A stretch of DNA of 64,000 bases from an uncultured Mollicutes bacterium (GTDB taxonomy: Bacteria; Bacillota_I; Bacilli_A; RF39; UBA660), in contig UQQI01000001.1 in assembly GCA_900543055.1 (NCBI GenBank), forward strand, positions 14,350 through 78,349, given 5' to 3'. This document shows, in pieces, positions 1,229-12,471 of this stretch. The first letter of the stretch is position 1; every line of letters begins with the position of its first letter. The notes under the pieces were generated by a model. The model saw only the letters and a list, made by a program, of their open reading frames with translations. It was not told the DNA's origin and made no database searches. Position numbers and translations under genes: made by a program.

Positions 1229-1728
1229 AAATACTAGTAAGTGTAAAACTTATCTAGTATTTTTGAATTATTTTCTTCTTGTAAAAATATTTAAGTATTT
1301 TCTTTCTTTTGAATTGCACCTAAAGCCTCAAGCACAGTCATTAAAGATATGTATCCAGCAGATAATTTGTGAGATAAATCATTTATAAAATTGTACCTCT
1401 CTTGAGTTTTAGTAAATCCATTAATGTATTCAGATATTTTATTTAGATTGTTATTTGAAGATAAAATAGATGATACAACTTTATATAAGTCACTATCCGT
1501 GTCTTTTGCATTACCAAAGAATCTATAAAAATCAAGTGATTTTCCATCTCCTTATTATTCATCTTTTTCTTCTTTATTGTTTTCTTTTTTATTTATATCA
1601 AACATCTCCTAAAAATAAGTATATCTATAAAAAAAGGAATATTGCAATGATATTACAAATAAAAAAAATTACAAAAAAATACATAGCAAAAATTAATAAC
1701 ATGGTATACTTAATTATAGGAGGTACAT

Positions 1729-2559: not shown

Positions 2560-3919
2560 TTTAGAAAAAGTGCCAATGAGAACACAAAGTCCCGAAATAA
2601 GAAATAAAAACTTTGAAGAGGTAGAACTTGGATATAACGACGAAGAAGCAGTAGAAGAGGCAAATAGATGTTTAAATTGCAAAATACCAAGATGTGTACA
2701 AGGCTGTCCAATAAATATTAAGATACCAGAGTTTATAAGTGCTATCAAAGAAAAAGACATAGGAAAAGCCTATAAAATCATAAGTGAATCTTCATCATTA
2801 TCAGCAATTTGTGGAAGAGTATGTCCTCAAGAAAAACAATGTGAAGGAAAATGTGTTAGAGGAATAAAAGGAGACGCTATAGCAATAGGAGCATTAGAAA
2901 GATATGTATCTGATAAGGCTTTGATAAATGATATGCAATGTGAATCTATAAAGGAAAAAAATAATAAAAAAGTTGCAATCATAGGAAGTGGACCGGCTGG
3001 TTTAGCATGTGCATCTGAATTAATAAGGAATGGCTTTAGTGTTGTTATATATGAATCACTTCACAAAGCTGGTGGAGTATTAACTTATGGTATTCCAGAA
3101 TTTAGATTACCTAAAGAAATAGTAAATAAACAAATTGATAACTTAAAAAAACAAGGTGTAAAAATAAAATTAAATATACCGGTTGGAAATGCAATTACTA
3201 TAAATGAATTGAAAGAAGAATATGATGCAATATTTATTGGAACTGGAGCAGGTATTCCTAAATTTATGGGAATAGAAGGAGAAGATGCAAATGAAGTGTT
3301 TTCTGCAAATGAGATATTAACTAGAATAAATCTTATGAAAAGTTATAAAGATAGTTCAAAAACTCCGATAAAAAAGTCAGGTATTGCCTATGTAATAGGT
3401 GGAGGCAATGTTGCAATGGATGCAGCAAGGTCATTAAAAAGACTTGGAATTGAGACACACTTAATGTATAGAAGAAGTGATGAAGAGTTACCTGCTAGAA
3501 AAACTGAAGTTAAACATGCTAAAGAAGAAGGAATTATTTTTGATATTTTAAAAAATCCGAAAAGAATTATTAAAGATGAAAATAATAGTGTTATAGGAAT
3601 TGAATATGTTGATATGGAACTGGGAGAGGCAGGAGAAGACGGAAGAAGAAAAGTAACAGAAATAGAAGGGTCAAATAAAACAATAAGATGTAACATGGTA
3701 ATTATGGCATTAGGTACATTACAAAATCATGAAGCATTGAAGAAATCTAATATAAAATTGAGTGATAAAGGATTAATTGTAGTTAATAATTTTGAAACAT
3801 CCGAAAGCGATATATATGCTGGAGGAGATGCTGTAACTGGAGCGGCAACAGTAATACTTGCTATGGAAGCAGGAAAAAAAGCAGCAGAACAAATAATGGA
3901 TAAGTGTAAAGAAATATAA
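2552..3919 (+). CDS. nfnB: Glutamate synthase small-subunit-like NADPH oxidoreductase (NfnB/GltD family)
   Basis: Two 4Fe-4S Cys motifs (CxxCxxxC…CP). Rossmann motif GSGPAGLACA and a second GGGNVAMD motif. RBS AAGGAGGAG precedes GTG 2552; the ORF track gives TTG 2534 as an alternative start. Confidence 0.75.
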   Translation: MINLEKVPMRTQSPEIRNKNFEEVELGYNDEEAVEEANRCLNCKIPRCVQGCPINIKIPEFISAIKEKDIGKAYKIISESSSLSAICGRVCPQEKQCEGKCVRGIKGDAIAIGALERYVSDKALINDMQCESIKEKNNKKVAIIGSGPAGLACASELIRNGFSVVIYESLHKAGGVLTYGIPEFRLPKEIVNKQIDNLKKQGVKIKLNIPVGNAITINELKEEYDAIFIGTGAGIPKFMGIEGEDANEVFSANEILTRINLMKSYKDSSKTPIKKSGIAYVIGGGNVAMDAARSLKRLGIETHLMYRRSDEELPARKTEVKHAKEEGIIFDILKNPKRIIKDENNSVIGIEYVDMELGEAGEDGRRKVTEIEGSNKTIRCNMVIMALGTLQNHEALKKSNIKLSDKGLIVVNNFETSESDIYAGGDAVTGAATVILAMEAGKKAAEQIMDKCKEI

Positions 3920-3935
3920 AATAAATAAAAAAACA

Positions 3936-3964
3936 TTTACAATAAAATTTTTAAATGCTATATT
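3936..3964 (+). promoter_or_regulatory. Sigma-A-type promoter, TTTACA-N17-TATATT, driving the WXG100-like operon
   Basis: -35 TTTACA at 3936-3941, 17-nt spacer, -10 TATATT at 3959-3964. Lies about 75 nt upstream of ATG 4041. Confidence 0.5.
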
Positions 3965-4040
3965 CAAATTGTAACAGGGTAAGGTTTTCTTGCGAGTGTT
4001 ATATATAATTTTAGTTTTATCGAAAGGTGGTGTTCATTTA

Positions 4041-4331
4041 ATGAACGGAGTAAGTCAAGATAGTGAAGCACTAAGACAAGATGCTAACTATATTAATGAA
4101 ATGGCAGAAACATTTAAAAGTCAATATGAACAATTATTTCAAGAAATGGAAGCAAATTTGAGTGCAGATGCAAATGAAAGTATTGCATGGTGGGGACCTC
4201 AAGCAGGGTTATTTTTAAATAACTTTAATAAGAAAAAAGAGGATTTTAATAATGCATATAAAAATGTAACAAGTATGGCAACAAATCTAGAAGAACAAGC
4301 ACAAGCTTGGGATACTTTTGAAAACGCTTAG
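4041..4331 (+). CDS. WXG100 (ESAT-6-like) family small helical protein, 96 aa
   Basis: RBS AAAGGTGG precedes ATG 4041 (the ORF track start at 3990 is less likely). About 100 aa, predicted helix-turn-helix with a central SIAWWGPQAG motif matching the WXG hairpin motif of T7SS substrates such as S. aureus EsxA (ANWEGQA). Confidence 0.6.
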   Translation: MNGVSQDSEALRQDANYINEMAETFKSQYEQLFQEMEANLSADANESIAWWGPQAGLFLNNFNKKKEDFNNAYKNVTSMATNLEEQAQAWDTFENA

Positions 4332-4348
4332 TATATAGGAGGAAAAAA

Positions 4349-4660
4349 ATGGCAACTAAATCAGGAATGAATTATGATAAGGTAGAAAAACTTATCGAAT
4401 ATTTAGATTCACAAAAGACATCTATTATCAATAATTTAACAGACTTAAGTAATGAAGCTCCATCTAAAATTGCAGCTCATTATTCTGGACAAGCAGCGGA
4501 AACATATAAGAATACATTAACTAATGTTATTACTAAAATAACTGAAACATTAGATACAATGATTGCTGAACTTAAAACAAATACACAACAAAAACAAGAC
4601 GATTATGCTGCACAAGATGCTAAGTTGCAAGACTCAGCAGATGTTGGTATTTCTGCTTAA
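4349..4660 (+). CDS. Second WXG100-like small helical protein (YxG variant), 103 aa
   Basis: RBS GGAGGA precedes ATG 4349, tightly coupled to the upstream gene. Central HYSGQAAE motif sits where a WXG motif would. All-helical, low-complexity composition typical of EsxB/Lap-like partners. Confidence 0.5.
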   Translation: MATKSGMNYDKVEKLIEYLDSQKTSIINNLTDLSNEAPSKIAAHYSGQAAETYKNTLTNVITKITETLDTMIAELKTNTQQKQDDYAAQDAKLQDSADVGISA

Positions 4661-4670
4661 TAGGAAATTA

Positions 4671-4736
4671 TAAGAAATTCATAGTAATTTCTTATTAGTG
4701 TGGGTTAATTATACTTAGCCCTTACTAATAAGAAAT
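4671..4736 (+). promoter_or_regulatory. Intergenic stem-loop with a duplicated left arm, giving alternative pairings, between the second WXG-like gene and the 276-aa gene
   Basis: Perfect 9-bp stem TAAGAAATT (4671-4679) / AATTTCTTA (4686-4694) with a 6-nt loop. A second copy of TAAGAAATT at 4728-4736 could compete for the same right arm. A longer alternative pairing is CTTATTAGTG (4691-4700) / TACTAATAAG. Confidence 0.4.
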
Positions 4737-4751
4737 TAAAGAGGTGATAAT

Positions 4752-5582
4752 ATGAATGTAGCAGAAGATCAAATGCTAGATATAGATGATGTTATTAATG
4801 AGACATGTCCACTAACAGAATATACTTTATACGCAACAGAAATTAGTAAATCAAACATAGGAACTATAAATTCATTAAAAGACATATTTAACGGAGAAGG
4901 AACTTTACCTAGTCAAACAACATCAATATTAGATGAGATAGATCCAACATTAAGTAAAACTAACTCTCAAAGATTCTATAGTGGTCAAACTGCACAAACT
5001 CAAATAACTAATGTTTCAGAAACTTCAGAACATTTACAAAATTTAAAATCATCCGTAGATAGTATTAATGTTGATGCAATATCAGCTACAATTGATTCAT
5101 ATAATGAGCATTTATCTAACTTAAAAAGAGATAGTAGAAAAAAATTGCTAGAAACTGCAGCAGACGCTTTTAATGAAAAAAAAGTTGAATGGGAAGGCTT
5201 TCCAAAAACAAAAACATATAAAACGGATGGGGATATATCCTATGTTGGACCAATATATGATGATGAGTTTAATAATTGTAATGAAACAGATACTGAAATT
5301 TATGAATATGATGTTGTTGAGAGTAGTTCTACTCCTGAAGACATTAAGGATAATAATGGTATGGTTATGTCAACAATTTATCATAATTCAATAACTTATA
5401 AAATTCACAAGTATAAACGAATCAAATACTGGAATTACTTTAAAATAATTAATTCACCAAAGGATCCAACTTTTGAACAAATTGAACAATTATTTAATAA
5501 AGTTGGTGAACCTTTACCATATGATCCTAGTAAAATTAATGGAGATGTAGGAAAAGCTAATGAATGGGGAATTAATTGGTAG
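4752..5582 (+). CDS. 276-aa hypothetical protein whose N-terminal helical region carries a WXG-like YSGQTAQ motif and an LXG-like L-x-D-x-F-x-G-x-G stretch; putative T7SS substrate or effector
   Basis: RBS AAGAGGTGA precedes ATG 4752. LKDIFNGEGT (residues about 42-51) resembles the LXG-domain motif of B. subtilis YeeF (LSDSEFSGKGA). RFYSGQTAQTQ repeats the YSGQ motif of the preceding gene. No signal peptide. Confidence 0.45.
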   Translation: MNVAEDQMLDIDDVINETCPLTEYTLYATEISKSNIGTINSLKDIFNGEGTLPSQTTSILDEIDPTLSKTNSQRFYSGQTAQTQITNVSETSEHLQNLKSSVDSINVDAISATIDSYNEHLSNLKRDSRKKLLETAADAFNEKKVEWEGFPKTKTYKTDGDISYVGPIYDDEFNNCNETDTEIYEYDVVESSSTPEDIKDNNGMVMSTIYHNSITYKIHKYKRIKYWNYFKIINSPKDPTFEQIEQLFNKVGEPLPYDPSKINGDVGKANEWGINW

Positions 5583-5597
5583 GACAGGAGAGAAAGT

Positions 5598-7355
5598 ATG
5601 AGTAATAGAACATATAATGAAGATGAATTAAATAGATTAGTAGAAAATTCATCAAAAATATCTCAAAATTTAGAAGCAATTTCAAACGACACAACATCAT
5701 ATTACGATAAAATCGACTCTAGAATTCTTAGAAAATTTAGTGATACCTTTTCTCAAATAAATAATTATAATGGGAAAATACAAGATGATATAGATAACAT
5801 AGATACATATGGAAATTGGTTAAGTCAAACATTAGACGATTATACAGGAACACGTAATAATGTAGAAGGCATGACTCCGGACTTAAGTGACATCAGTGCA
5901 GATGTTGGAGATACATCATTAGGAGAAGGAGATGCATCATTAAAAGACTTATCTTCAATTTCATCTATTATAGAATCTACAGTTGGTGGATTAGGCTCTG
6001 CAGATAAAGCAGAACAATTTCCTCTTGATCCAGAGGCTTGGAAAAATTTATCTGGATCAGAAAAAGAAGTAATTGTAAAAAAATTAAAAGAACTAGGATT
6101 TACAGATGAAGAAATAAATAATATTAAAGACGGAAAAGTTTCAGTTGATAAAGTTAAGTTAGAAGAACTAGCAAGTCAACTTGAAAAATTATATAAATTA
6201 GATCCAAGCATAAGACAAAAATTAAAAGATTTGTATGGATTTGATATTTTTAATGATGATGGAACAGTAAACAAAGAAAAATTAGCAATCGCTATGCTTA
6301 TGGATGCTAAAAATCCAAACGACCAATATGATTTAAAAAAACTACTAACAAAATTAAATGCTAGTACATCAACAGGTAATAGTAGTAATAAGAGTACAAC
6401 TGGTAATGTAACAAAGGTAGTTGCAAATGATATAGGTGGTTCTAGTCAAACAACTAGTACAATAGCAGGAGCAGCTGCAGGACTTGGAGCAACAGTTGCT
6501 GCAGTTGGAGGAACTACTTCGAAAGCTACAGGATTAGCAGCTAGTGCAGAAGAAGAGGCACTTGCAGGAGATAAATCATCAGACTCATCAAATGCTTCTA
6601 GTAAAAATTCAAGTCTTTTGGACGGATTAAAATCAGAAATGAATCATGTAATAAACAGTATAAAACCATCAGGAAACATTTCTACAAAACAAGGAAATGC
6701 CGCTATTATTGCAGGAGCAGGTCTTGGAACAGTATCACTAGCAGGTGGAGGAATAATGGCTGGTAAGAAAATTATGATGTTAGTATTCAAACCAGAACAT
6801 TTTACAAATTTATCTGAAGTCATAAAAGATACACTTTTAAATACTTTTAAAGCATTAAAATTTACGGAAGAAGAATTAGATTTATTTATGACATCAAATT
6901 TGAAGATAAAAGCATCACTAATTGATGATATAATTACAGCAATTAAGAAAGCTAGTGAATTAGATCCTGAATTAAATTCAAAAATAAAGCAAGTTTATAA
7001 TTTTAGTGTGTTTACAGAAAGTAATAAAATTAGTAAATATTTAATATTAATGATAATGTTAATTGATGGAAAGAAAATTGGTGACCAATATAATATCTAT
7101 GATATATTAAATCCAATATTAGCAGAAACTGATTATGTAAATTACACATATCAAGGTGTATCTTTACAAGATATTGTAGTAAAGGAAAAAGAAGAAAAGA
7201 AAGAATCAGATAAACAACAAAAAGAAGAAGCAAAACAACCAGAAATAAATGCTAATAAAGAAGAAATTTTAGATGAAAACGAAGATAGTAAAACATCAAC
7301 TACAAGTACATCTTCAGTAGAATCATGGCTAAAAGAAATGGGAATTGACTCATAA
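5598..7355 (+). CDS. 585-aa hypothetical protein: helical N-domain, two homologous ~100-aa repeat domains flanking a Gly/Ala/Ser/Thr-rich glycine-zipper region, and a Lys/Glu-rich tail
   Basis: RBS GGAGAGAAAG precedes ATG 5598. Internal repeats at residues about 150-255 and 400-510 share LDP…K.K..Y.F..F…L.I.ML.D.K…DQY. Glycine-zipper (GxxxG) runs IAGAAAGLGATVAAVGG and AAIIAGAGLGTVSLAGGGIMAG lie between them. The C-terminal tail is KEKEEKKESDKQQKEEAK. Confidence 0.6.
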   Translation: MSNRTYNEDELNRLVENSSKISQNLEAISNDTTSYYDKIDSRILRKFSDTFSQINNYNGKIQDDIDNIDTYGNWLSQTLDDYTGTRNNVEGMTPDLSDISADVGDTSLGEGDASLKDLSSISSIIESTVGGLGSADKAEQFPLDPEAWKNLSGSEKEVIVKKLKELGFTDEEINNIKDGKVSVDKVKLEELASQLEKLYKLDPSIRQKLKDLYGFDIFNDDGTVNKEKLAIAMLMDAKNPNDQYDLKKLLTKLNASTSTGNSSNKSTTGNVTKVVANDIGGSSQTTSTIAGAAAGLGATVAAVGGTTSKATGLAASAEEEALAGDKSSDSSNASSKNSSLLDGLKSEMNHVINSIKPSGNISTKQGNAAIIAGAGLGTVSLAGGGIMAGKKIMMLVFKPEHFTNLSEVIKDTLLNTFKALKFTEEELDLFMTSNLKIKASLIDDIITAIKKASELDPELNSKIKQVYNFSVFTESNKISKYLILMIMLIDGKKIGDQYNIYDILNPILAETDYVNYTYQGVSLQDIVVKEKEEKKESDKQQKEEAKQPEINANKEEILDENEDSKTSTTSTSSVESWLKEMGIDS

Positions 7356-7368
7356 ATCAAAATTAAAG

Positions 7369-7396
7369 GAAATACAAAAAAGTATTTCTTTTTTTC
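7369..7396 (+). terminator. Rho-independent terminator closing the four-gene operon
   Basis: Stem GAAATAC/GTATTTC with an AAAAAA loop, followed by a run of seven T. Confidence 0.55.
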
Positions 7397-7509
7397 ACAG
7401 AATTTGTGGAAAAAAGAAAATTACTGTAATCAACAATATATGTGAAAAAACATATTTGCGACAAATAAAAAAAAGTAATATAATATACAGGGAAAAAGGA
7501 GCGATATAT

Positions 7510-8640
7510 ATGATATATTTAGATTATGCATCCGCAACTCCTGTGGATAAAGAAGTATTAGATGTTTATAATGAAACTAGCAATAAATATTATGCTAATC
7601 CGAATTCAATACATCCTTTAGGAATAAAGTCAAAAGAAAAATTAGATACTACAACGAAAGAAATTGCACACTTGTTAAATGTCGAAAAAGAAGAAATAAT
7701 TTATACAAGTGGAGCAACTGAGTCAAATAATTTAGTAATAAAAGGAATTGCTAATAGATATAAAAACTATGGTAAACATTTACTATTAAGTTCATTAGAG
7801 CATCAATCATTAATAGCTCCTGCAACAAAGCTTCAAGAACAAGGTTTTGAAGTAGAATTAATACCTGTAGATTCAAAAGGTAGAGTTGATTTAGAAGAAT
7901 TAAAATATCTACTAAGAGATGATACAATTCTTGTAAGTGTTACATCAGTGGACTCTGAACTCGGAATTATTCAACCAATAAATGAGATTGGAGCACTATT
8001 AAAAGAATATAAGCACTGTATATTTCACACAGATGCTTCTCAAGCTATTGGTAAGATTGATTTAAATTTAGAAAATGTTGATTTAGTAACAATAGCACCA
8101 CATAAATTTTATGGACTTAACGGAACTGGATTATTGATAAAGAAAAAAGGTATTGAACTATCTCCAATAATAGATGGGGGAAGATCAACTACAGTATATA
8201 GAAGTGGAACACCTGTACTTCCTGAAATAACAGCACTTTGTAAAGCACTACAAATTGCATTGAATAATCAAAAGGAAAGAATAGAATATGTGGAAAGATT
8301 AAATAATGTAATAATAGAAAAATTAAAAAGTTATAAAAATATTCATATAAATTCAAATGAGTATTCAATAAAAAACATTATAAATATTAGTATAAGTGGA
8401 ATAAAATCAACAGAATTTGTGGATTACATGGGAAAAAATAACATATGTATTTCAGCAAAAACATCATGTTGTCCAGTAGAGACACCATCAAAATTAGTTT
8501 ACGCCTTAACAAAAAGTAAAGAATTATCAACAACGTCACTTAGAATAAGTCTTTCACATTTAACCACGAAAGAAGAAATAGATGAATTTATAAAAATATT
8601 TGATAAAGGATATAGGGAGTTTTTAAATGGAAAAATATAA
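7510..8640 (+). CDS. Cysteine desulfurase (class V aminotransferase, NifS/IscS-like)
   Basis: RBS AAAAAGGAG precedes ATG 7510 (MIYLDYASATP…). PLP-lysine motif TIAPHKFYGLNGTG. C-terminal SAKTSCC active-site-like cysteine. The ORF track start at 7345 is probably too far upstream. Confidence 0.7.
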   Translation: MIYLDYASATPVDKEVLDVYNETSNKYYANPNSIHPLGIKSKEKLDTTTKEIAHLLNVEKEEIIYTSGATESNNLVIKGIANRYKNYGKHLLLSSLEHQSLIAPATKLQEQGFEVELIPVDSKGRVDLEELKYLLRDDTILVSVTSVDSELGIIQPINEIGALLKEYKHCIFHTDASQAIGKIDLNLENVDLVTIAPHKFYGLNGTGLLIKKKGIELSPIIDGGRSTTVYRSGTPVLPEITALCKALQIALNNQKERIEYVERLNNVIIEKLKSYKNIHINSNEYSIKNIINISISGIKSTEFVDYMGKNNICISAKTSCCPVETPSKLVYALTKSKELSTTSLRISLSHLTTKEEIDEFIKIFDKGYREFLNGKI

Positions 8641-9630: not shown

Positions 9631-10729
9631 ATGGAACTAAAAGAACAAAGAAAATCACTTGAAATAAATTTAGAAACAATAACTAACTTATGGAGGTCAC
9701 TTTGACATCGATACAAAAATAAAGAAAATAGAAGAACTTCAAAAACAGACAGAAAACCTTAATTTTTGGAATGACCGCGAAAATGCTGAAAAAGTACTAA
9801 GAGAATTAAATGATTTAAAAGATACAGTCAATAAAGTATCATCTATAAAAGAAGATATAAATAGTAACTTAGAAGTAATAAATCTACTTGAATTAGAAGA
9901 AGATAATGACTTATATAATGAAGTTATATTAAATTCAGAAAAAATAAATAAAGAAACAGAAGAATTAAATAAATTATTACTTTTAAGTGGGCCATATGAT
10001 AAAAATGATTGTATTTTAGAAATACATCCTGGAGCTGGTGGTACAGAGTCATGCGATTGGGCTAATATGCTATATAGAATGTATACAAGATACTGTGAAA
10101 ATCATAATTACAAAATAACAATACTTGATTACCAAGCAGGTGATGAAGCGGGGATAAAAAGTGTATCTCTATTAATAAAAGGTATAAATGCTTATGGTTA
10201 TTTAAAAAATGAAAAAGGGGTTCACAGACTTGTAAGATTATCACCTTTTGACTCTAACAATAGAAGACATACATCATTTGCATCAGTAGAAGTTACACCA
10301 GATATTGATAAAGATGTTGATGTAGAAATAGATGATAAAGATTTAAAAATTGATGTATATCGTTCAACAGGAGCAGGAGGGCAAGGAGTAAATACAACAG
10401 ACTCAGCAGTAAGAATTACACATTTACCAACAAAGATTGTAGTTACATGTCAAAATGAACGAAGCCAAATTCAAAATAAAGAACAAGCAATGAGAGTGTT
10501 AAAAAATAAGTTATTGTTATTAAAAATGGAAGAGCAAGAACAAGAATTAAATAAAATTAAGGGAGAACAAATGAATATAAACTTTGGCTCTCAAATAAGA
10601 AGTTACGTAATGCATCCATATTCAATGGTAAAGGATCACAGAACAAATAAAGAAACAAGCAATGTTTCAAAAGTACTAGATGGAGATATAGACGAATTTA
10701 TAGAAGAAAATTTAAAAAAGGGGCTATAA
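9631..10729 (+). CDS. prfB: Peptide chain release factor 2, with a programmed +1 ribosomal frameshift at CTT TGA C (TGA at 9703-9705)
   Basis: ORF0 (ATG 9631, MELKEQRKSLEINLETITNLWRSL) ends at an in-frame TGA that is preceded by the internal SD-like GGAGG and the canonical CUU UGA C slippery site. The +1 frame continues (DIDTKIKKIEELQ…) into the RF2 C-terminal ORF with the GGQ motif (RSTGAGGQGVNTTDSAVRITHLPT). Confidence 0.9.
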
Positions 10730-10730
10730 T

Positions 10731-11612
10731 ATGAATATATTTTCTAAAAATAGAGATTTAAAATTTGTAAATTATATTAATAAAAAAACATATAAAAAAA
10801 GACTTCTTCAGTTTATTACAGGTTGTTTTATAATATCTGTTGCTTATAATATGTTTATTGCACCAAATGATTTAGTACCCGGAGGAGTAGGCGGAATAGC
10901 TATTATCATAAATAACCTATTTGGAATAAATAATGCTTTGTCAGTTTTAATATTAAATATAACATTATTAATAACTAGTTATTTCTTACTTGGAAAAGAA
11001 AAAACAAAAGCATCTATTTTAGGTTCGATACTATTTCCAATATTTATAAGTTTAACTGAATATATACATGTTTATTTTCAATTAGATACTTCAAAACTAT
11101 TATTAAATGCTATTTTTGGAGGAATGTTATATGGTTTTGGAGCAGGACTTGTATTTAAAGCAGGATTTACAACAGGTGGAACAGATATTGTTAATCAAAT
11201 AATTTCTAAATATTTTAAAACAAGTCTTGGAAAAAGTATGCTATTTAGTGATGGACTTATAGTATTATGTTCAGGTCTATTCTTTGGGATAAATAGTATG
11301 CTATATTCTATAATAATATTATACATAATAAGCTTAATGTCAGATAGAGTAGTACTTGGAACTTCTGATAATAAAATGTTTTATATAGTAACTAAGAAAG
11401 ATGAAGAAGTAAAAGAATTTATTTTAAAATATTTAAATCATGGAGTAACAATATTTAAAGGAAAAGGTGGCTATAGTAAAAATAATGAGAATGTTTTAAT
11501 GGCAGTTCTTCCTACAAAAGATTATTACAGATTAAAAGAAGGAATAAATGAAATTGATAAAGATGCCTTCTTTATAGTAACAGACTCTTATGAAGTATTT
11601 GGAGGAGAGTAG
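10731..11612 (+). CDS. YitT family membrane protein (DUF161 plus C-terminal DUF2179)
   Basis: Multi-TM N-terminal region with a GGxGG motif (VPGGVGGIAII) and a C-terminal DUF2179-like domain (KGKGGYSKNNENV…FFIVTDSYEVFGG). Confidence 0.65.
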   Translation: MNIFSKNRDLKFVNYINKKTYKKRLLQFITGCFIISVAYNMFIAPNDLVPGGVGGIAIIINNLFGINNALSVLILNITLLITSYFLLGKEKTKASILGSILFPIFISLTEYIHVYFQLDTSKLLLNAIFGGMLYGFGAGLVFKAGFTTGGTDIVNQIISKYFKTSLGKSMLFSDGLIVLCSGLFFGINSMLYSIIILYIISLMSDRVVLGTSDNKMFYIVTKKDEEVKEFILKYLNHGVTIFKGKGGYSKNNENVLMAVLPTKDYYRLKEGINEIDKDAFFIVTDSYEVFGGE

Positions 11613-11613
11613 T

Positions 11614-12471
11614 ATGGAAAATATTTTAGATGTGATAAGAAAAAAGAAACAATTATATAGAATAATTTTAATGGGAGCATCCCTTTTCTTGAGTGCAATT
11701 TTATATAATGTATTTTTATTACCATTAAGTTTAGTAACCGGAGGAACACAAGGTGTTGCAACAATTACACATTATCTATATGGTATAAATCCTGCCACAA
11801 TGCTTTTCTTATTATCACTTGCTTGTGCAATATTAAGTCTTATGTTCTTAGGAGTAAAAAGAACAGCAGGAACATTAGTAGCAAGTATAGTTTATCCACT
11901 TCTTGTACAGTTAACCTCCCCATTAAATGGATTAATAGATGCAGAAAACATAGACATGTTATTAATGGTTTTATTTGCTGGAGTAATAAGTGGAGTTGCG
12001 AATGGACTAATGTATAAAACAGGCTATAGTAATGGAGGTTTCCCAGTAATAAGTCAAATTCTTTTTGAAGAAAAACAAGTACCAATAAGTAAATCTTCCC
12101 TAGCAATAAATGTATCTATTGTTTTAGTTGGAGCTTACTTTTTTGGAATAACTAATGCCCTATACGCAATCATATTCTTATATATAAATGGTATTGTATT
12201 AGATAAAGTATTACTTGGAATATCTAACAATAAAGCTTTCTACATAATTACAAGTAAAGATGATGAAATAAAAGAATATATTATAGAAACGCTAAAACAC
12301 AATGTAACAACCTTTGAAGTAAAAGGTGGTTTCTTAGATAAGAATAGAAAAGTAATGTTAACTGTTATTCCTTCAAGAGAATATTACAGGGTTACAGAAG
12401 GTATAAAAGAAATAGATAAAGATGCTTTCTTTGTAGTAACAGATTCATATACTGTAGAGGGAGCTAAATAA
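11614..12471 (+). CDS. YitT family membrane protein, tandem paralog of the preceding gene
   Basis: RBS GGAGGAG precedes ATG 11614. Same architecture (VTGGTQGVATI … VKGGFLDKNRKV … FFVVTDSYTVEG). Confidence 0.65.
   Translation: MENILDVIRKKKQLYRIILMGASLFLSAILYNVFLLPLSLVTGGTQGVATITHYLYGINPATMLFLLSLACAILSLMFLGVKRTAGTLVASIVYPLLVQLTSPLNGLIDAENIDMLLMVLFAGVISGVANGLMYKTGYSNGGFPVISQILFEEKQVPISKSSLAINVSIVLVGAYFFGITNALYAIIFLYINGIVLDKVLLGISNNKAFYIITSKDDEIKEYIIETLKHNVTTFEVKGGFLDKNRKVMLTVIPSREYYRVTEGIKEIDKDAFFVVTDSYTVEGAK

Follow-up and report, generated by a model that had tools for sequence, protein, structure and literature searches.

A four-gene cassette in an uncultured Mollicutes bacterium

The window analysed here, a stretch of 64,000 nucleotides (nt) from contig UQQI01000001.1 of an uncultured Mollicutes bacterium (assembly GCA_900543055.1), is low-GC DNA (~27% G+C) in which four tightly spaced plus-strand genes, at 4041-7355, are flanked by genes for a gltD-like oxidoreductase and a cysteine desulfurase. 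Each of the four is preceded by a Shine-Dalgarno sequence. What is new here, as judged from sequence, is a WXG100-linked operon of uncultured Mollicutes-like Bacilli with two unannotated protein families and a repeat domain. Genes 1 to 4 could well form one operon encoding a set of substrates, with new cargo families, of a type VII secretion system (T7SS), an interpretation to which we give about an even chance; it is drawn from the WXG100 protein with a YxxxD/E motif encoded by gene 2, the hairpins of genes 3 and 4, the fixed gene order, and the T7SS ATPase encoded near the cassette in one related locus, L021. The genes and their parts are as follows.

4041-4331, plus strand: gene 1 (96 residues), small, helical and WXG100-like, with W50-x-G52 and, at the C-terminus, a conserved W90xxFE94
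4349-4660, plus strand: gene 2 (103 residues), EsxB-like, divergent member of WXG100 carrying Y45-x-G47 (putative turn) and Y86-x-x-x-D90 (nt 4604-4618)
4752-5582, plus strand: gene 3 (276 residues), helical domain at residues 34-142 (nt 4851-5177) and beta-rich C-terminal domain at residues 143-262
4959-4994, plus strand: gene 3 signature loop T70-N-S72-x-x-F-Y-x-G78-x-x-A81, from the conservation profile
5598-7355, plus strand: gene 4 (585 residues), directly after gene 3
5619-5867, plus strand: gene 4 N-terminal alpha-hairpin (residues 8-90), from the AlphaFold2 model
6045-6353, plus strand: gene 4 helical repeat domain, first copy (residues 150-252)
6699-6767, plus strand: gene 4 glycine-zipper hydrophobic segment (residues 368-390), followed by KK
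6807-7115, plus strand: gene 4 helical repeat, divergent second copy (residues 404-506)

The first-pass annotation of the window had pointed to a recurrent WXG-type motif in the products of the first three genes, and the motif is present in each of them as described: WWGPQAG in gene 1 (W50-W-G52-P-Q-A55-G, nt 4188-4208), HYSGQAAET in gene 2 (H44-Y45-S-G47-Q-A-A-E-T, nt 4478-4504) and FYSGQTAQT in gene 3 (F75-Y76-S-G78-Q-T-A81-Q-T, nt 4974-5000). In the ~19,400 residues encoded by the open reading frames (ORFs) of at least 100 residues in the window, YSGQ occurs twice, in the adjacent genes 2 and 3, and the looser pattern [WYF]xGxxA nine times (0.46 per 1000 residues), three of these in genes 1 to 3. 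Because the motif cores ([WY]-x-G-x-x-A) are kept in orthologues of each gene, down to 20-35% identity, the shared motif is, on comparative grounds, a real and selected feature. The assignment of all three proteins to the WXG type holds to different degrees: gene 2 is a true WXG100 relative, the evidence for gene 1 is weak, and the hairpin of gene 3 is plausible.

The small proteins encoded by genes 1 and 2

Gene 2 matches the Pfam WXG100 model PF06013 with 24.6 bits (E 3.1e-5; gathering score 27.3) and TIGR03930 with 25.7 bits (E 9.6e-6; threshold 44.85), and precomputed Pfam annotation labels its orthologues 'WXG100 (weak)'. When a profile of six gene 2 orthologues was compared with the PDB, the best matches were WXG100 proteins, namely the EsxB-type chain 4lws_A of Thermomonospora curvata (E 1.9e-4, full length), S. 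aureus EsxA (E 5.9e-4), 4i0x_B (E 4e-3) and ESAT-6 (E 0.04). The h-Y-S-G-x-A of gene 2 is aligned with the h-W-E-G-D-A of 4lws_A, placing Y45-S-G47 opposite W-E-G, and tyrosine takes the place of tryptophan at this position in all six orthologues. Y45, G47, A49 and A50 are invariant among the six sequences, down to 20% identity. Near the C-terminus, Y86-A-A-Q-D90 conforms to YxxxD/E, aligns with the YxxxE of 4lws_A and is kept in six of six orthologues, Y86 being invariant. Gene 2 thus reads as a genuine, if divergent, WXG100 protein with a C-terminal export-type motif. YxxxD/E is a mark of T7SS substrates such as EsxB, and the composite export signal of T7SSs combines WxG on one partner with YxxxD/E on the other.

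For gene 1, the matches are fainter: E 0.049 (14.3 bits) to PF06013, E 0.16 to TIGR03930, and E 0.001 (19.3 bits) to NCBIfam ESAT6_2, whose cut-off is 100. Gene 1 fell outside the WXG100 family model, its profile gave no significant WXG100 match in the PDB (4lws_A, E 0.42), and its sequence similarity to gene 2 is not significant. W50, G52, A55, W90, F93 and E94 are nonetheless invariant in five sequences, down to 32% identity. Its WXG100-like character is read from the conserved WxG, its size and its adjacency to gene 2, and from these alone; on this weak evidence, gene 1 is probably the partner of gene 2.

Taken as a pair, the two genes resemble known WXG100/ESAT-6 pairs such as EsxA-EsxB in being adjacent and ~100 residues long, in the putative helix-turn-helix with [WY]-x-G at the turn, in the YxxxD/E near the C-terminus of one partner, and in the full-length alignment of gene 2 with the T. 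curvata protein. They differ from them in their sub-threshold scores, in the tyrosine that replaces tryptophan in gene 2, in gene 1 being barely detectable, and in that no secretion ATPase gene lies near genes 1 to 4 in the window. The Lap models DUF3130/TIGR04197, DUF3958, DUF5344 and DUF5082 were unmatched by genes 1 and 2 in Pfam and NCBIfam at E up to 10; a functional analogy to Lap targeting factors may still hold. No signal peptide or hydrophobic segment was found in genes 1 to 3.

Gene 3, a new family with a helical and a beta-rich domain

The AlphaFold2 model of gene 3 (mean predicted local distance difference test score, pLDDT, 82.6; predicted template modelling score, pTM, 0.68) contains helices at residues 34-47, 52-69, 79-103 and 107-142, followed by a beta-rich domain with strands at 152-159, 182-199 and 205-222 and then a helix at 241-250. 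The FYSG motif (75-78) falls in the loop 70-78 between the second and third helices, as the first-pass annotation had predicted. Since the helical part extends to residue 142, the C-terminal module comprises ~130 residues rather than the ~150 first suggested.

A WXG100-like hairpin fused into gene 3 had been proposed from the motif, and the relationship between genes 2 and 3 bears on it. BLASTP aligned the two over 42 residues with E 0.014. Shallow profiles aligned just 11 columns (E 0.038, probability 1.4%), whereas more diverse ones, compared with hhalign, aligned residues 8-67 of gene 2 with residues 32-98 of gene 3 over 58 columns with the motifs in register (E 2.5e-4, probability 43%). 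As the support varies with alignment depth, homology of the two genes, and with it the fused hairpin, is plausible but not proven. These alignments also address the thought that a short motif has simply recurred by chance in helical, compositionally biased proteins with no common ancestry or function. Such an explanation would fit the 11-column shallow alignment and the lack of significant similarity between genes 1 and 2, but it is extremely unlikely: the motif cores are conserved family by family over deep divergence in genes that are always adjacent, YSGQ appears nowhere else in the ORFs of the window, and deeper profiles lengthen the alignments to 58-79 columns.

An exhaustive profile search for the gene 3 family returned 80 cluster representatives (50% identity), and a conservation profile was built from 52 family members. 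The family members have in common LYA (26-28), the loop TNSxxFYxGxxA, YNxxLxxLKxxxRxxLL (117-133) and, at the C-terminus, ExxFxxxGxxLPYD. Within the protein, conservation peaks in the loop 70-78, with S72 invariant in the 52 members and A81 (96%), G78 (85%), Y76 (75%) and F75 (73%) largely kept; P256 and Y257, in the C-terminal motif, are found in 96% of members. Conservation is lowest in the beta domain (mean top-residue frequency 0.23), where only P167, Y221 and I224 reach 70% and no candidate catalytic residue stands out. Some homologues carry variable extensions, which are N-terminal (in proteins of up to 562 and 928 residues) and never C-terminal.

Pfam, NCBIfam, PADLOC and PHROGs contained no family matching gene 3 or its 52 relatives, PDB sequences gave no match to gene 3, and a Foldseek search with its model returned nothing significant (best E 0.12 in the PDB and 0.08 among viral structures). 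The LXG model PF04740 was unmatched by gene 3 at E up to 10 and by the 52 relatives at E up to 0.01, and DUF4176, the model of the Lcp chaperones, was unmatched by gene 3 and the same 52 relatives.

The first-pass annotation had read gene 3 by the domain logic of polymorphic T7SS effectors, with a WXG100-like hairpin for targeting ahead of a C-terminal region without a known function. This is in keeping with the motif at the hairpin turn, the profile link to gene 2, the faster evolution of the C-terminal beta domain relative to the helical one and the extra N-terminal extensions of some homologues. The family alignment nevertheless largely refutes the idea, which we now regard as very unlikely. 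The C-terminus is homologous throughout the family, with ExxFxxxGxxLPYD retained, and the variable parts are N-terminal rather than C-terminal; gene 3 therefore appears to represent one family with one architecture, found across all 80 clusters, and not a polymorphic toxin. A toxin-domain check of its C-terminal domain against Pfam, NCBIfam, PADLOC and the PDB gave no match to a toxin family or fold, there is no candidate catalytic residue, and no immunity gene accompanies it.

Gene 4, a putative membrane protein with a new repeat

Gene 4, which the first-pass annotation overlooked, is the more effector-like member of the set and always lies directly 3' of gene 3 across the compared loci. AlphaFold2 modelled its folded parts with a confidence of 74-91. 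At the N-terminus, helices 8-38 and 48-90 (pLDDT 74-79) form a predicted hairpin, where D40, R42, F51 and T78 do not vary and seven of eight aligned sequences have W74. Against the PDB, the N-terminal profile scores best with 8gmh_B, an LXG domain (E 2.3e-4; 0.018 for the best stretch), and with hhalign 79 columns of this region align with the gene 2 family (E 2.1e-4, probability 46%). With Foldseek, seven of twelve hits of the gene 4 model were B. anthracis EsxB chains (TM 0.60-0.68), at E values that are not significant. PF04740 itself matched neither gene 4 at E up to 10 nor eight gene 4 N-termini at E up to 1, and LXG, DUF3130, DUF3958 and DUF4176 found no match in the Pfam scans of gene 4.

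The remainder of the protein is made up of a helical repeat of ~75-100 residues with the core YGFDIFNxDGT[VI]NxxKLxxAxxxD, a Ser/Thr/Gly-rich linker and a Gly-rich hydrophobic segment, AGAGLGTVSLAGGGIMAG, whose Kyte-Doolittle maximum is 1.61 at residue 370; a signal peptide is absent. Homologues have one to five tandem copies of the repeat, including those of L012, L016 and L021, and most of them also have an acidic loop and a second Gly-rich segment. In most, lysine clusters flank the hydrophobic segments, as in ordinary membrane anchors. The repeat had no counterpart in Pfam or the PDB and seems, from these comparisons, to be a new and previously unannotated domain. A match to dephospho-CoA kinase (best E 0.0076) covered 29 residues only and was dismissed as spurious, and a dockerin or EF-hand, suggested by DGTVN, was rejected since conservation fails at the key acidic positions and no such model matched. 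A repeat of the gene 4 type is also seen in a separate 245-residue protein next to a WXG100 pair, in locus L019. A scan of viral contigs gave no relatives of gene 4, and hence no sign of a phage or defence origin; PADLOC and PHROGs scans likewise gave no meaningful match.

The layout of the cassette invites comparison with LXG effectors, for which TelA and TelC of S. intermedius and the TelE operon of S. gallolyticus (gallo_0559-0565, with Lap factors and an Lcp chaperone) served as comparators. In the TelE operon, LapE1, LapE2 and a chaperone are followed by a 514-residue LXG toxin with a C-terminal glycine zipper (458-480), and LXG domains bundle with Lap proteins. Genes 1 to 4 might thus encode a TelE-like antibacterial toxin, with gene 4 as an LXG-like glycine-zipper pore-former, genes 1 and 2 as Lap factors and gene 3 as the chaperone. 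Gene order and sizes agree with those of the TelE operon, the N-terminus of gene 4 is weakly similar to the LXG domain, its best PDB match, and gene 4 has the Gly-rich hydrophobic segment. The cassette departs from the TelE operon in five ways, however: immunity genes are missing; the cargo proteins of genes 3 and 4 are conserved, not polymorphic; the LXG, DUF3130, DUF3958, DUF5344, DUF5082 and DUF4176 models are left unmatched; gene 3, with 276 residues, has a new helical-plus-beta architecture unlike DUF4176 chaperones; and gene 4 carries the new helical repeat. The gene 4 hairpin also has ~85 residues against ~200 for an LXG domain. Moreover, nothing resembling an immunity gene follows gene 4, its downstream neighbours differing in every context, and the lysine clusters are those expected of membrane anchors. 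A toxin operon of this kind is therefore quite unlikely, and conserved cargo that is exported or anchored in the membrane is favoured.

Conservation of the cassette and its genomic neighbourhoods

The gene 4 alignment was used to search for related loci, since the broad gene 3 alignments have no stretch conserved enough for this. The order gene 1-gene 2-gene 3-gene 4 is kept in L001/L005, L002, L003, L009, L012, L016, L021/L022, L023, L026 and L029, in at least eight different neighbourhoods, and it persists where protein identity to the window counterparts is only 20-40%; G+C content is 23-33% in all loci. The closest named relative, L001 (CAKOZD010000001.1), is from an uncultured Bacilli metagenome-assembled genome of a Hadza gut sample and has a gene 3 that is 86% identical. 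Near-identical copies carry the labels 'Bacilli bacterium' or 'Mollicutes bacterium'. The neighbourhoods are as follows, with the position of the cassette shown by dots.

Window, L001, L005: gltD ... iscS
L002, L009: Rce1-like ... rbfA
L003: two-component system ... cmpB
L012, L016: amidase ... glycosyltransferases and ltaS
L021: pheT-frr ...
L023, L026: murB ... rpmB, spoIIGA-sigE-sigG
L029: short contig with the cassette
L011: gene 3 homologue (537 residues) without the small genes, between an unannotated 348-residue gene and uvrC

The genes found 3' of gene 4 vary accordingly (cysteine desulfurase, rbfA, cmpB, rpmB or glycosyltransferase), and in the compared contexts neither gene 3 nor gene 4 is followed by a candidate immunity gene. 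Genes 3 and 4 are homologous end to end across their families, so that the variable C-termini and immunity genes by which LXG toxins are recognized are both lacking.

In the spore-forming L023 (13022-19036) and L026 (13113-19226), the cassette sits between murB and spoIIGA-sigE-sigG, and four unannotated genes (284, ~590, ~530-560 and 80 residues) without Pfam matches lie amid the sigma factor genes. The L011 contig also holds sporulation genes.

Is the cassette linked to a type VII secretion apparatus?

The one context that joins the cassette to a T7SS is L021, where the cassette (3873-7884) has a WXG100 gene and an EssC-type ATPase gene with FHA and FtsK/SpoIIIE domains 4.5 kb away. It is followed, in order, by genes for a 391-residue exported protein, a nusB-like protein (a by-eye reading from its sequence, with no family scan made), xseA, and then by the T7SS locus.

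L021, 11214-15083: T7SS locus of a low-GC relative with a small genome, comprising a WXG100 pair, a 150-residue coiled-coil protein and an FHA, transmembrane and FtsK/SpoIIIE ATPase

One member of this second small-gene pair, at 11537-11851, is above the Pfam WXG100 gathering score (28.4 bits). The ATPase ORF starts at 12432 and encodes more than 884 residues with the EssC signature of FHA, transmembrane and FtsK/SpoIIIE parts, the contig ending inside the gene. From this gene content, at least one cassette-bearing relative has a T7SS, near the cassette but not contiguous with it. Novel T7SS variants, T7SSc-j, have been described in Bacillota (Garrett, Higginson and Palmer 2024, PMC11217815). 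As a rule, one or two small genes related to WXG100 adjoin T7SS substrates (PMC11217815). The present loci resemble these variants in the FHA and FtsK/SpoIIIE ATPase next to a WXG100 gene in low-GC Bacillota, as in L021, and in candidate substrates adjoining such small genes (PMC11217815); they differ in that Mollicutes-like Bacilli are not mentioned there (PMC11217815) and in that the L021 contig stops within the ATPase gene. Literature searches yielded no relevant work on T7SS or WXG100 proteins of RF39 or Mollicutes. Genes 3 and 4 were also considered as apparatus components of a new T7SS variant, a proposal set aside since they lie away from the ATPase in all contexts but one.

Several observations weigh against a substrate set. 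Genes 1 and 2 both remain under the curated WXG100 thresholds. Among the largest ORFs of the 64-kb window, no EssC-type ATPase or other T7SS core gene was found, and in the related contexts, L021 excepted, the 10 kb on either side of the cassette hold none of these genes. Even there, housekeeping genes (nusB-like by eye, and xseA) separate the cassette from the ATPase, so that the link could be a coincidence, with a chance of ~5-10% over the contexts examined. The hhalign probabilities that tie genes 3 and 4 to WXG100 or LXG are below 50%, and coiled-coil noise in the PDB search with the gene 4 N-terminus reaches E ~1e-3. Finally, the putative membrane segment of gene 4 was not confidently modelled by AlphaFold2, and in the window a repeat copy lies on either side of it, which is awkward for a purely extracellular role.

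These points give some room to a T7SS-independent module, in which ESAT-6-type proteins, the TNSxxFYxGxxA family and the membrane protein with YGFDIFNxDGT repeats would form a self-contained, conserved envelope or developmental complex of low-GC, Mollicutes-like Bacilli with small genomes, a complex that works without an EssC ATPase and uses another route of insertion or assembly. Streptomyces EsxA and EsxB affect sporulation partly independently of the secretion ATPase. The cassette is single-copy and highly conserved within the species (more than 120 clusters at 95-99% identity), it is set among housekeeping, cell-wall and sporulation genes (murB, spoIIGA-sigE-sigG, amidase, ltaS, rbfA), and an adjacent T7SS gene is missing in all contexts but one. 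On the other hand, gene 2 keeps its YxxxD/E export-type motif, L021 is a cassette-bearing relative with a T7SS ATPase nearby, and gene 4 has a large N-terminal part without a signal peptide, yet a Ser/Thr-rich linker, which is typical of exported proteins. T7SS substrates are, besides, often encoded away from the apparatus. On balance, we consider a T7SS-independent module fairly unlikely.

Proposed role and significance

If genes 1 to 4 do encode T7SS substrates, the products of genes 1 and 2 would form an EsxA/EsxB-like heterodimer, and these proteins, or their hairpins, would bundle with the hairpins of genes 3 and 4 after the manner of Lap proteins and LXG domains. An EssC-type ATPase, encoded at another place in the genome, would receive the complexes. 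Gene 4 would then be exported, its glycine-zipper segment keeping it in the membrane and its helical repeats lying outside, and gene 3 would act as a co-substrate or specific adaptor and not as a toxin. As the cargo is conserved and shows no polymorphism, we favour a function at the surface or envelope of the producer over an antibacterial toxin.

Most work on type VII secretion has concerned pathogens and competition by means of toxins. The operon described here is widespread, conserved and non-polymorphic in abundant uncultured low-GC Bacilli of gut and rumen, and two of its families and one repeat domain are unmatched in the libraries scanned. Should these proteins prove to be T7SS cargo, they would point to a housekeeping or host-facing role of type VII secretion in reduced-genome commensals, and genome mining would gain two new substrate families recognizable by a clear signature motif. 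Should the genomes that carry them be devoid of EssC, ESAT-6-like proteins would act outside type VII secretion.

The gene 2-gene 3 spacer and other features of the window

Two further elements lie in the noncoding parts of the cassette.

3936-3964, plus strand: promoter-like site TTTACA-17-TGnTATATT ahead of gene 1 (extended -10 TG; 10 of 12 matches in a consensus scan)
4685-4738, plus strand: conserved 23-bp RNA hairpin in the gene 2-gene 3 spacer

The promoter-like site is a candidate, the total of such sites being no higher than in shuffled sequences. The 101-nt spacer region 4655-4755, which holds the 23-bp hairpin, has a minimum free energy of -28.8 kcal/mol (z -5.45). Four related loci preserve the hairpin and show two compensatory pairs; the 3' end of the hairpin comes just ahead of the gene 3 ribosome-binding site and is not followed by a T-run. 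It was unmatched in an Rfam scan of 3900-7500, which returned a spurious snoRNA match only. The hairpin may set the ratio of gene 1 and 2 to gene 3 and 4 expression. Upstream of it, TAAGAAATT (4672-4680) could alternatively pair with its 5' arm.

The remaining genes of the window are housekeeping genes (prfB, yitT, ftsEX, uvrBA, pgk and others), the longest ORF being that of UvrA (937 residues). In L005, a gene at 4431-6650 (minus strand), between S66 peptidase and pyrK-like genes, encodes a 739-residue protein without a Pfam match, which has 752 residues in L001. It is missing at the matching place of the window (1229-1728) and would therefore be a strain-variable insertion.

Release factor 2 is encoded in two frames by prfB (~9632-10729), with GGAGG ahead of the +1 frameshift site CTT TGA C at 9700; the program-made ORF list holds only its downstream part, of 220 residues. 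UGA is a sense codon in some Mollicutes. This was ruled out here because prfB is intact and keeps a classical programmed frameshift site, which confirms UGA as a stop codon in this Mollicutes-like organism.

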